Virus genome (UHGV): UHGV-0278151
Reading direction: 5' to 3' (one strand)
DNA from: a virus
Length of the DNA: 20,723 bases
In this document: one piece after another, positions 16,950-19,305 of the stretch
Layout of the letters: every line of letters starts with the position of its first letter
Position numbering within the stretch: position 1 is the stretch's first letter
Program-made: the position numbers and the translations under genes
Notes under the pieces: generated by a model
What the model was told of the DNA's origin: nothing
What the model saw: only the letters and a program-made list of their open reading frames with translations
The model's database searches: none

Positions 16950-16974
16950 AAAAAAAACCGCCCGGTGGAGGCGG
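16950..16974 (-). terminator. Minus-strand intrinsic terminator downstream of the tRNA-like gene
   Basis: The minus strand reads CCGCC-tccaccg-GGCGG followed by TTTTTTTT. It is convergent with the two plus-strand terminators. Confidence 0.75.
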
Positions 16975-17242: not shown

Positions 17243-17318
<76 letters not shown>

Positions 17319-17446: not shown

Positions 17447-17469
17447 AAAAAAACCCGCTCAGTGGCGGG
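17447..17469 (-). terminator. Intrinsic terminator (copy A of a 25-bp repeated terminator)
   Basis: The minus strand reads CCCGC-cactga-GCGGG-TTTTTTT. A second 8-bp hairpin (AAGGCACC-attaa-GGTGCCTT, 17490-17510) lies just upstream on the same transcript. Confidence 0.75.
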
Positions 17470-17482
17470 ATCTTTTGATAAA

Positions 17483-17594
17483 AACGACAAAGGCACCATT
17501 AAGGTGCCTTTTACACAGGGGCAGCAGGCTTGTCATCACCTCATCGCTACTCCTGGCTTCCTGTTCGGAAGTCTCACAAGTCCCATCAGGGTAC
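17483..17594 (-). ncRNA. Candidate small RNA (about 85-145 nt) from the TTGACA/GATACT promoter to the tandem terminators
   Basis: The predicted start is near 17594. The transcript has an internal hairpin CTTCC-gaaca-GGAAG, then the 17510-17490 hairpin with a U-rich tail, then the 17469-17447 terminator. There is no convincing ORF, only ATG AGG TGA and a 25-codon frame with a poor SD. Confidence 0.4.
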
Positions 17595-17600
17595 AGCGAC

Positions 17601-17629
17601 AGTATCAGCCAACACACTATGTGTGTCAA
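17601..17629 (-). promoter_or_regulatory. Strong sigma70-type promoter TTGACA-17-GATACT
   Basis: The minus strand reads TATA TTGACA cacatagtgtgttggct GATACT gtcgctg. The hexamers are those of lambda pL. The spacer contains the inverted repeat ACACAC-tat-GTGTGT. A perfect palindrome ATCGAATTCGAT (17641-17652) and a 10-bp hairpin lie upstream. Confidence 0.6.
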
Positions 17630-17664
17630 TATAAATTCATATCGAATTCGATAATCGTTTTCGA

Positions 17665-18066
17665 TTATCGATACAGATAAGCCATCCCTATCCCGTGCAA
17701 TACCGCCCGTTTAATATTCTCAAACTCATCTTCCGCAATCATAGGAACAATATAATTTCGTCCCTCCCAGGTTCTGGTTTTTATGCGATCCAGTCGGCTC
17801 AATGAAACCGTCATCAACATGTCACATTTTACCCAGCAAGTAATATGCTCATTACCAGGTATGGGGTTTTCTGATAACTCATGATGGCAATCTCTGCGAG
17901 GGAGCGGTTCAGTAGTGCTTATTGGTACCACTGTTACCAATTGATTGTTGTGCCTGTTTCTGGACACGACCACCACTGGCCTGACCTTGACTATTTCCGG
18001 AACAACCATTCCCCGAAAATCACACATTAAAACAGAACGAACAGACGGCTGATACTTTAATACCAT
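17665..18066 (-). CDS. PemK/MazF-fold toxin-like protein (YifN-like), with no adjacent antitoxin gene
   Basis: 133 aa from the ATG at 18066: MVLKYQPSVRSVLMCDFRGMVVPEIVKVRPVVVVSRNRHNNQLVTVVPISTTEPLPRRDCHHEL...WVKCDMLMTVSLSRLDRIK. This is the MazF/PemK signature (G/S-x-L-x-x-DF ... E-x-x-K-x-RP-x-VV-S ... V-x-VVP-x-ST ... D-x-x-x-TV). The SD is weak (AAGAGA). Confidence 0.7.
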   Translation of the reverse strand: MVLKYQPSVRSVLMCDFRGMVVPEIVKVRPVVVVSRNRHNNQLVTVVPISTTEPLPRRDCHHELSENPIPGNEHITCWVKCDMLMTVSLSRLDRIKTRTWEGRNYIVPMIAEDEFENIKRAVLHGIGMAYLYR

Positions 18067-18170
18067 AAATCTCTTTGCCTGATAATGACGACTTGTGAAC
18101 TCCACTACAAACAAAATGATTCTGCTGAACAGGCAGTTTCGCACTATACATTATAACCTGTTAAGCCAAC

Positions 18171-18193
18171 AAAAAAACCCGCTCGGCGGCGGG
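18171..18193 (-). terminator. Intrinsic terminator (copy B); candidate tR' about 50-70 nt downstream of the candidate late promoter
   Basis: The minus strand reads CCCGC-cgccga-GCGGG-TTTTTTT. It matches copy A at 17447-17469 in 23 of 25 positions, and the two differences lie in the loop. Confidence 0.75.
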
Positions 18194-18247
18194 ATTTGCT
18201 TACTTTGCCATCGAGTACAAAATCGGCAAAATATCAGATTTGCACGA

Positions 18248-18276
18248 AATATATGCCTTTTAATCTACTTTTGCAA
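18248..18276 (-). promoter_or_regulatory. Candidate late promoter pR' overlapping the 3' end of the Q-like gene
   Basis: The minus strand has TTGCAA (18276-18271), a 17-nt spacer and TATATT (18253-18248). The predicted +1 is the A at 18241. The initial transcribed region contains cTGaTATTTT, a -10-like element of the kind that causes sigma70-dependent pausing at lambdoid pR' promoters. Confidence 0.5.
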
Positions 18277-18949
18277 CACTTTGCTTTGAAAATGCCGTCT
18301 TTTGTTCTGAACGTGTTCTCATCACAAACAATAAAGCCTCACTATCCAGCCGGTGGAAAATGTGTTTCATTGCAACCCAGTGACCAGTAAATGTTTTGGA
18401 CCAGTTTTTTGTTGTTACTCCCGCCAGTAATGCCAGTTCCTGATATTCATAAGTTTCACGCCCAGCTAGCTCACTCTTCACATCCTGTGCCGCCAGCCAG
18501 ATTAATTTTTTCAGGCGCTCCCGTGTTTTCTCCGCAATTTTTCTGGTACCAGATTGCGCGTTAAATTCATTCCACGCCCACTGTGTTATCGCAATCTGGT
18601 GTTCCCAGCAAATGCTGCCGCTGTAACACCACAGCAACCAGGCTTTATAGTGTTCTTCAAGAGACAGAACCGCCCGTCGCCATGATGATGTCGAAAACTC
18701 AACCTGACTTACCAGAGGAATTGACGTCCTCTTTGCCAGCGATTGTTTCCCCGGGATTGGTGGATTATCCCGCGTTATCATTTTTCCGGTCACTTCATCG
18801 CGGTACCGGATTTTTTTACGCCTGTAACGCCCTGTATCAAACATGGCATTCTCCTGCCAGGCTTCAAGCTGACCTTTTGTTGCCCCACTCAAATCGGCGG
18901 TGGCAATAATGAGCTGCTCACGAACAAACTGTAAATACTGGTTATTCAT
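18260..18949 (-). CDS. Late-gene antiterminator Q, QuuQ-like long form (229 aa)
   Basis: It sits directly after rusA with an ATGA stop/start overlap at 18946-18949, and GGAG lies 5 nt upstream. A promoter and terminator follow it. The size and the DUF968-Q adjacency match Qin ydfU-quuQ. The sequence is MNNQYLQFVREQLIIATADLSGATKGQLEAWQENAMFD...EEHYKAWLLWCYSGS... The family assignment is from memory and position only. Confidence 0.55.
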   Translation of the reverse strand: MNNQYLQFVREQLIIATADLSGATKGQLEAWQENAMFDTGRYRRKKIRYRDEVTGKMITRDNPPIPGKQSLAKRTSIPLVSQVEFSTSSWRRAVLSLEEHYKAWLLWCYSGSICWEHQIAITQWAWNEFNAQSGTRKIAEKTRERLKKLIWLAAQDVKSELAGRETYEYQELALLAGVTTKNWSKTFTGHWVAMKHIFHRLDSEALLFVMRTRSEQKTAFSKQSVAKVD

Positions 18950-19305
18950 GCGCACTCCAGCCCTGTGATTTTTATCCCCAACCGACCACCAGGAACGACC
19001 TGACCGCGCACAATATTGATTTCATCAAACTGCTCGTCGTCGATAAGCAGTCCCGCATACGTCAGCGCATCCAGCGGTGCTTTCAGAATATTGTCCAGGT
19101 CACGACGGCGCTTATCCGGCGGCTCTGCAATGATCTTTATCGCCAGCCTTCCGGACAGGTTTAATTTCAGCCGCTGCTGGCGAACAATAAGCGCCACATC
19201 ACGGCGATAACGCTCACCGGCTTTTGATACAAAATATGTGCTGCCACGACGACGCCAGTAGGTGTTCACCGTCGGCGGGTAAGGCAAAACAAACTCTATA
19301 CGCAT
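18946..19305 (-). CDS. rusA: Holliday junction resolvase RusA
   Basis: 119 aa, MRIEFVLPYPPTVNTYWRRRGSTYFVSKAGERYRRDVALIV...PPDKRRRDLDNILKAPLDALTYAGLLIDDEQ... It carries the conserved P-P-S/T-x-N-x-Y and DRRRRDLDN motifs of RusA. Confidence 0.9.
   Translation of the reverse strand: MRIEFVLPYPPTVNTYWRRRGSTYFVSKAGERYRRDVALIVRQQRLKLNLSGRLAIKIIAEPPDKRRRDLDNILKAPLDALTYAGLLIDDEQFDEINIVRGQVVPGGRLGIKITGLECA

Follow-up and report, generated by a model that had tools for sequence, protein, structure and literature searches.

The window, by which we mean the whole 20,723-nucleotide stretch of viral genome UHGV-0278151 that was analysed, is a lambdoid prophage with a near-identical counterpart in E. coli SE11 (NC_011415.1). 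The gene order on its minus strand is DUF968, RusA, Q, a PemK-like gene, TerB, DUF3927, two holins, an M15 endolysin, and terminase. The late antiterminator gene Q (18260–18955, minus strand; PF06323, E = 1.2e-93, and RefSeq annotation) is located directly upstream of the cassette described here. A pR'-like sigma-70 promoter (TTGCAA-17-TATATT, 18248–18276, minus strand; 9/12 in the promoter scan) overlaps the Q stop codon and precedes the strong tR'-like intrinsic terminator T1 (CCCGCCGCCGAGCGGG plus a T run, 18171–18193, minus strand). Judged by sequence and position, the promoter and T1 fit a pR'/tR' pair. The 3' end of Q, the pR'-like promoter, and T1 are shared by 947 E. coli genomes. The predicted short transcript from the promoter to T1 (18172–18244, minus strand) has sub-threshold Rfam matches to isrJ/isrK of Salmonella prophages (E 0.13–0.3).

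The second terminator, T2 (17447–17469, minus strand), closes the cassette on its other side. The two near-identical terminators noticed by an earlier, sequence-only reading are real: 18171–18195 and 17447–17471 are 92% identical (23/25), and both score as minus-strand intrinsic terminators. A third copy of the terminator motif, 72% similar, is found further downstream at 16950–16974, before the TerB gene. On balance, we consider the cassette between T1 and T2 (18170–17470) to be a two-gene module, probably composed of a gene for a MazF-fold endoribonuclease of the YifN family and of a structured small RNA of ~114 nt that is dedicated to it and has a strong promoter and a terminator of its own.

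The protein gene (17665–18066, minus strand) encodes 133 residues and is assigned to the YifN family of PemK/MazF-fold proteins as a putative endoribonuclease toxin. The protein matches Pfam PF02452 (PemK_toxin) with E = 5.6e-14 and 52.7 bits, at a cut-off of 23.1, and the RefSeq label in E. coli SE11 is PemK/MazF toxin. The AlphaFold2 model has a pLDDT of 90.7, and the top 50 Foldseek matches in the PDB are all MazF/PemK-type toxins (target-normalised TM ≤0.81). The MazF/PemK character first read from the open reading frame, and the fold that structure prediction was to check, are thus both borne out. Residues K27, R29, V47, P48, S50, P54, W78, K80, and R91 are invariant in 23 diverse homologues. 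In a profile alignment to E. coli MazF, R29 and S50 of the protein correspond to R29 and T52, so the catalytic positions are conserved and an active RNase is plausible.

Homologues occur in Enterobacteriaceae, Xenorhabdus, Pseudomonas, Geobacter, Alphaproteobacteria, and metagenomes, and are labelled "YifN (PemK superfamily)" or "PemK/MazF family toxin". The YifN-family clade comprises ~500 loci among 185,579 species genomes, plus many phages. No PADLOC model matches the protein, its NCBIfam match to MazF is sub-threshold, and PHROGs places it in a phrog of unknown function.

A protein antitoxin would be expected next to a MazF-type gene, and the sequence-only reading had seen no open reading frame of suitable size on either side. 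In accordance, a Pfam search of the small flanking open reading frames of the window gives no antitoxin-like match, and these frames are not conserved. Prophages of Enterobacter and Klebsiella carry a 75–79% identical gene in the same slot between Q and holin, preceded by a different Q family (PF03589) or, in a Mu-like phage, by Mor. No called gene lies directly upstream of the PemK-like gene in these prophages, and the leader beyond about −35 is not conserved in them; the only close downstream call is a 39-aa minus-strand open reading frame that overlaps the RNA in one contig. Clustering of the neighbouring open reading frames across loci reveals no common adjacent partner. Homologues on the chromosomes of Alcanivorax, Paragemmobacter, and Geobacter likewise stand alone, with no adjacent antitoxin. 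An adjacent co-transcribed protein antitoxin, which defines type II systems, is therefore absent from the prophage and chromosomal homologues examined.

The perfect TATAAT hexamer upstream of the gene is indeed present at 18155–18150 (minus strand), as first noted. It has no recognisable −35 element and is not reported by the promoter scan, and it is missing in the Enterobacter and Klebsiella versions. For these two reasons, the hexamer is a weak candidate for a promoter of the toxin gene, a role first raised as a possibility. Toxin-deleted derivatives keep the TATAAT, upstream of the RNA.

The region between the open reading frame and T2 contains a promoter and a structured RNA gene, both overlooked in the sequence-only reading. 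The promoter (TTGACA-17-GATACT, 17601–17629, minus strand; 10/12 in the promoter scan) is located 36 nt past the stop codon of the open reading frame, and the pattern TTGAC(A/T)-17-(G/A)ATACT is kept in the enteric versions, namely the window, L002, L084, and L089. The conserved structured small RNA of ~114 nt (17481–17594, minus strand) is supported by blastn, nhmmer, a covariance model, and folding. Its predicted fold has four helices: P1 (17594–17589/17584–17580), P2 (17571–17567/17561–17557), P3 (17554–17546/17525–17517), and P4 (17510–17503/17497–17490), all on the minus strand. P3 is extended by a 3-bp inner stem, P3b, with the 8-nt loop GAUGACAA (17537–17530, minus strand). P4 is the terminator, found by the terminator scan as a hairpin at 17511–17489, and T2 follows 3' of the RNA as a back-up. 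The unpaired motifs CUUGUGAGACU, GUG(A/U)A, and a 3' tail UUUGUC(R)UUU are near-invariant.

The fold is supported by covariation. In an alignment fitted to the covariance model, 88% of cells are paired and both sides have changed in 19/28 pairs; double-change cells number 243 in this alignment, as compared with 83±10 in shuffled controls and 38–78 with slid partners. RNAalifold applied to a structure-blind MAFFT alignment finds 10 compensatory pairs, and the minimum-free-energy fold of the single sequence is the same structure (z = −4.4). The RNA therefore has a four-helix fold with invariant unpaired motifs. A possible pseudoknot between the loop AUGACAA and the tail UUGUCAU is 90% complementary, and its covariation is no better than that of shuffles. 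There are no tandem repeats of the type III kind in the RNA region.

In searches of Rfam 15 with the window, at the gathering threshold and at E ≤10, nothing covers the RNA body; the 3' end gives terminator-type matches only (STnc370, OrzO-P, isrK, and leader peptides; E 0.3–1.7), far below gathering. The same database gives no match to the RNA in 12 distant loci at the gathering threshold and nothing credible for a Pseudomonas copy of the RNA at E ≤10. We found no description of the RNA in the literature searched, which included two Breaker-lab ncRNA surveys. In some E. coli genomes, proteins have been called over the region of the RNA and T2, namely a RefSeq 65-aa "hypothetical protein" in L002 (4762–4959) and an "HTH domain-containing protein" in strain C5. 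These are probably spurious gene calls, and the hypothetical and HTH annotations over the RNA call for correction.

A perfect 10-bp palindrome, TCGATAATCG-AAAA-CGATTATCGA (17648–17671, minus strand), spans the toxin stop codon and lies just upstream of the −35 element of the RNA promoter. Only the E. coli versions have this palindrome, which is conserved in neither L084 nor L089 and might serve as an operator or as a hairpin at the 3' end of the mRNA. A 10-nt inverted repeat between the start of the open reading frame and the RNA promoter was considered and discarded, since by our own estimate it is at chance level for 1.8 kb.

The RNA accompanies the protein gene far beyond the enteric phages. 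Iterated nhmmer searches place the RNA on the strand of the gene, 7–200 nt past the stop codon, in 88/91 protein-seeded loci, which span Alpha-, Beta-, Gamma-, and Deltaproteobacteria, metagenome-assembled CPR genomes, and phages. With blastn, the RNA stretch is 72–79% identical in Brevundimonas, Vogesella, Massilia, Noviherbaspirillum, and others, always directly 3' of a homologous gene, and most of these loci have no detectable similarity in the coding DNA. Covariance model R1 matches 53/56 sources at E ≤1e-13. Between E. coli and Enterobacter/Klebsiella, the RNA is 89–90% identical and the coding sequence 72–75%. The RNA is also present 3' of distant homologues with 40–49% identity, in Geobacter (L097), Paragemmobacter (L096), and a metagenome contig (L167). 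The most divergent subfamilies, P0108 and P0101 (39–42% identity), are without the RNA, and one of them differs in the gene directly upstream.

The Alcanivorax RNA is encoded on the opposite strand, so that gene and RNA converge. Alysiella and Kingella apparently have a reduced form of the RNA, with its own terminator, upstream of the gene, a placement that comes from weak model matches (E about 0.009) and partly from inspection of the sequence. Since the linkage survives inversion and apparent placement upstream, the RNA is better explained as a partner acting in trans than as a feature of the 3'UTR. The toxin–RNA pair also adjoins unrelated Q families and occurs in a Mu-like phage and at non-phage chromosomal sites. 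The protein and RNA genes are thus evolutionarily coupled across phyla despite changes of order and orientation, and the terms "orphan" and "partnerless", applied to the gene when its sequence was first read, have to be given up. In an Oxalobacteraceae locus (L012, 8218–8364), a second, solo copy of the RNA is found 3.8 kb past a gene–RNA pair, with no second YifN-family gene between.

Loss of the pair is one-sided. Among 5,426 complete E. coli genomes, 37 have the RNA and 24 the coding sequence. A motif scan of IMG/VR identified 58 phage contigs with the RNA; the gene is just upstream in 37 and missing in 20. The 20 gene-less contigs present several independent junctions; a clean deletion is among them, and one contig retains a remnant of a toxin pseudogene. 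Three loci are illustrative: a clean deletion has joined the toxin leader to the RNA promoter (L092), the RNA is located behind a different Q (L093), and a diverged RNA with compensatory changes persists without a PemK gene in E. coli A34 (L094). Conversely, the RNA is almost never missing from protein-seeded loci with adequate flanks. Several of the solo RNAs are truncated or mutated. Reading of the open reading frames that flank solo RNAs discloses no recurring alternative protein partner, and the contexts are heterogeneous. One-sided loss is the pattern expected if the gene encodes a toxin and the RNA its antidote. Intact solo RNAs, such as that of L094, suggest that the RNA may function without the protein. 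The structurally intact solo RNA of L094 (2983–3113) has a Panacea-domain gene on one side and a ParD/ParE pair on the other, in a prophage region past the lysis genes, a site that looks like a hotspot for toxin–antitoxin cargo.

The borders of the cassette can be placed by comparison with prophages that lack it. In E. coli A36 (L098), a prophage of the same type has tRNA-Thr and tRNA-Gly immediately after Q, the promoter, and T1, in agreement with the earlier placement of the cassette at the tR' position. The homology between the window and L098 ends at 18171, in T1, and resumes at 17291, inside a tRNA-Gly remnant; homology with L083 likewise resumes at 17291. The remnant (17254–17311, minus strand) matches positions 8–63 of the Rfam tRNA model with 48.5 bits, lacks its acceptor 5' strand or has had it replaced, and receives no ARAGORN call. 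In comparison with cassette-free prophages, it marks the cassette's right-hand junction, and sister prophages have intact tRNA-Thr/Gly or Arg/Thr/Gly arrays at its position. L099 has a single terminator, followed by sequence homologous to that which follows T2 in the window. From the border homologies with L098 and L099, the cassette is a mosaic replacement at the tR' position. The simple insertion with a duplication scar that was first envisaged does not account for these borders, since relative to L098 the tRNA-Thr gene and the 5' part of the tRNA-Gly gene have been replaced.

Taken together, we favour the interpretation that the cassette is an RNA-antidote toxin–antitoxin or abortive-infection module carried as a prophage moron, an interpretation somewhat more probable than even, in which toxicity and neutralisation are both predicted from sequence. 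The ~114-nt RNA would most likely be the missing antidote. By analogy with type III systems, the RNA would most likely bind the RNase directly as a pseudo-substrate or inhibitor, and in the enteric phage versions its loop GAUGACAA possibly also pairs with a matching box in the leader of the toxin gene. Lysogens would make the RNA constitutively, and its transcripts would be confined by its own terminator and T2. T1 would keep pR' transcripts out of the cassette. Because the gene sits behind the tR'-like T1, the toxin is predicted to be expressed only by read-through or after Q antitermination. The RNA's own terminator and T2 would stop the RNA promoter from reading into the lysis genes, so the T1/T2 pair probably insulates the late genes from this constitutive promoter. 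If synthesis of the RNA stopped or the ratio shifted, for example upon host shut-off by an infecting phage, free RNase would arrest the cell, and the outcome would be abortive infection or addiction. The solo copies of the RNA in other phages could serve as anti-toxin decoys. It is possible, albeit tentative, that the module represents an unrecognised and widespread class of toxin–antitoxin or abortive-infection systems, in which a MazF-family toxin is neutralised by a single-copy structured RNA and RNA-only phages use the RNA as an anti-defence decoy.

The complementarity between the RNA and the toxin leader raises the alternative of type I-like antisense control, in which the loop GAUGACAA would pair with a leader box of the toxin mRNA and reduce its translation or stability, with no binding of the protein. 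The leader box of the window (GUCGUCAUUAUC, 18081–18092, minus strand, ~15–26 nt before the ATG) is complementary to the RNA loop region GGUGAUGACAA, with 10/11 pairs as read by eye. The leader of the Enterobacter and Klebsiella phage versions (UUGUCAUCACC, 24 nt before the ATG) is a perfect 11-nt complement of GGUGAUGACAA, and a second phage subgroup has an 8-nt leader match at −21. Among the leaders listed, those of Pseudomonas and Caulobacteraceae and most of the others have no such box; it is therefore lineage-specific. In addition, loop and leader box do not covary, and an elaborate fold with several invariant unpaired motifs is not explained by simple antisense. General antisense pairing to the toxin start region was also considered and rejected, the duplex energies between the RNA and translation starts being at the level of shuffles (mean z −0.28; 2/51 below −2). 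Antisense pairing as the sole mode of action is accordingly quite unlikely. Alternatively, the RNA could be the main unit, as a small RNA with a regulatory or structural role in the phage or host, and the MazF-fold protein an accessory processing or binding factor and not a toxin. In line with this, solo RNAs are frequent and some are apparently intact, the conservation of the RNA exceeds that of the protein, and the RNA begins only 7 nt past the stop codon in many loci, which would need processing from the mRNA. However, the protein retains the catalytic residues of toxic MazF RNases, and the loss is one-sided, as a toxin and its antidote predict, with several of the solo copies truncated or mutated. 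We regard this alternative as unlikely.

Two further explanations dispense with a partner RNA. The gene was first thought to suit a partnerless toxin for host shut-off or exclusion of other phages, in which case the downstream element would be a 3' stabiliser, a terminator, or an unrelated neighbour. The absence of a protein antitoxin agrees with this, as does the slot behind pR'/tR', which would give Q-dependent expression. But the RNA has a conserved promoter of its own, its linkage to the gene persists when it is inverted or probably moved upstream, it persists as solo copies, and its conserved structure goes far beyond the needs of a terminator, making a partnerless toxin very improbable. 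The conserved 115 nt might also function at the DNA level, for instance as a site of recombination, attachment, or protein binding, given that TGACAA and TTGTCA form an inverted repeat and that the element lies at mosaic junctions, with mobile-element RNAs nearby in other loci. Against this, compensatory changes occur in three helices, helix lengths vary, the promoter position would let transcription begin at the first paired base, and an intrinsic terminator falls within the conserved unit. A function as DNA is the least probable of the readings considered, and we return to the RNA-antidote module.

In several respects, the module resembles the type III systems ToxIN, CptIN, and TenpIN. As in these systems, the gene for a (here putative) endoribonuclease toxin is linked to a non-coding RNA, in our case in 88/91 loci. 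The intrinsic terminator that sets the RNA-to-toxin ratio, carriage by phages or plasmids, and an abortive-infection logic are further likenesses. ToxN, the toxin of ToxIN, has a Kid/MazF-like fold. Pseudo-ToxI escape phages carry RNA-only copies, to which the RNA-only phage copies described here are comparable. However, the toxin belongs to Pfam PemK_toxin and not to ToxN/AbiQ, CptN, or TenpN, with no matching PADLOC model, and the RNA is a single structured unit of ~114 nt in place of an array of 34–40-nt tandem repeats. Moreover, the RNA is usually downstream of the gene and has its own promoter, whereas type III repeats are upstream, with a terminator between repeats and toxin; the type III order of RNA, terminator, and toxin is found apparently only in Alysiella and Kingella, with weak model matches. 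To our knowledge, a single-copy, usually downstream RNA is unlike every described type III system. Our preferred reading, drawn from this comparison, is that the module would work like a type III system yet falls outside type III by toxin family, repeats, and gene order.

The toxin fold, Pfam family, and catalytic Arg plus Thr/Ser are shared with the type II systems MazEF, PemIK, and Kis–Kid. Unlike these, the module has no MazE, PemI, or other protein antitoxin adjacent to the gene in any lineage examined, and the YifN-labelled clade is distinct, with the extra conserved residues W78, K80, R91, H61, D82, and D93. The module is also distinct from type I systems, in which the toxin is a small hydrophobic peptide and not a 133-aa protein with an RNase fold. 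The slot, from the late promoter–terminator to the lysis genes, is that of lambdoid moron cargo such as the stx genes and tRNAs of Stx phages; tRNA genes occupy it in sister prophages, and expression from it would be Q-dependent. The cargo differs in being a toxin–RNA pair with a constitutive promoter for the RNA.

MazF and PemK are textbook toxins of the protein–protein (type II) kind, and annotation routinely treats "solitary" MazF-like genes as type II toxins whose antitoxin is missing. In the YifN-family clade as a whole, a conserved structured RNA occupies the place of a protein antitoxin. Should this RNA be the antidote, RNA-based neutralisation would reach the MazF family proper, the catalogue of RNA families would gain a new class, and the MazF-like "orphans" of the clade would be explained. 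It would also provide a testable phage case, with a defence or addiction module in the slot between Q and lysis genes and RNA-only decoys in competing phages.

The yifN pseudogene of E. coli K-12 carries the same COG label and shares the motifs PE(M/I)(V/I)K.R and VVP(I/L)STT. We rejected it as an orthologue: the identity is 29% over 68 aa, and the K-12 sequence is a pseudogene with an insertion and R-L instead of R-P. It lies on the chromosome, flanked by ppiC and rep. The RNA model matches ~50 nt downstream of yifN (L163, 3892–3963, minus strand) with 9.4 bits, over P1, the junction, and a hairpin, and this stretch may be a decayed remnant of the partner RNA.

In other taxa, mobile-element RNAs are found beside the module (L040 4957–5043, L048 3304–3389, L011 4631–4719, and L037 4611–4907). 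C4 antisense RNA adjoins it in Pseudomonas, and sRNA-Xcc1 does so in Pasteurellaceae. In a metagenome-assembled Saccharibacteria genome, a group II intron lies directly 3' of the RNA terminator.
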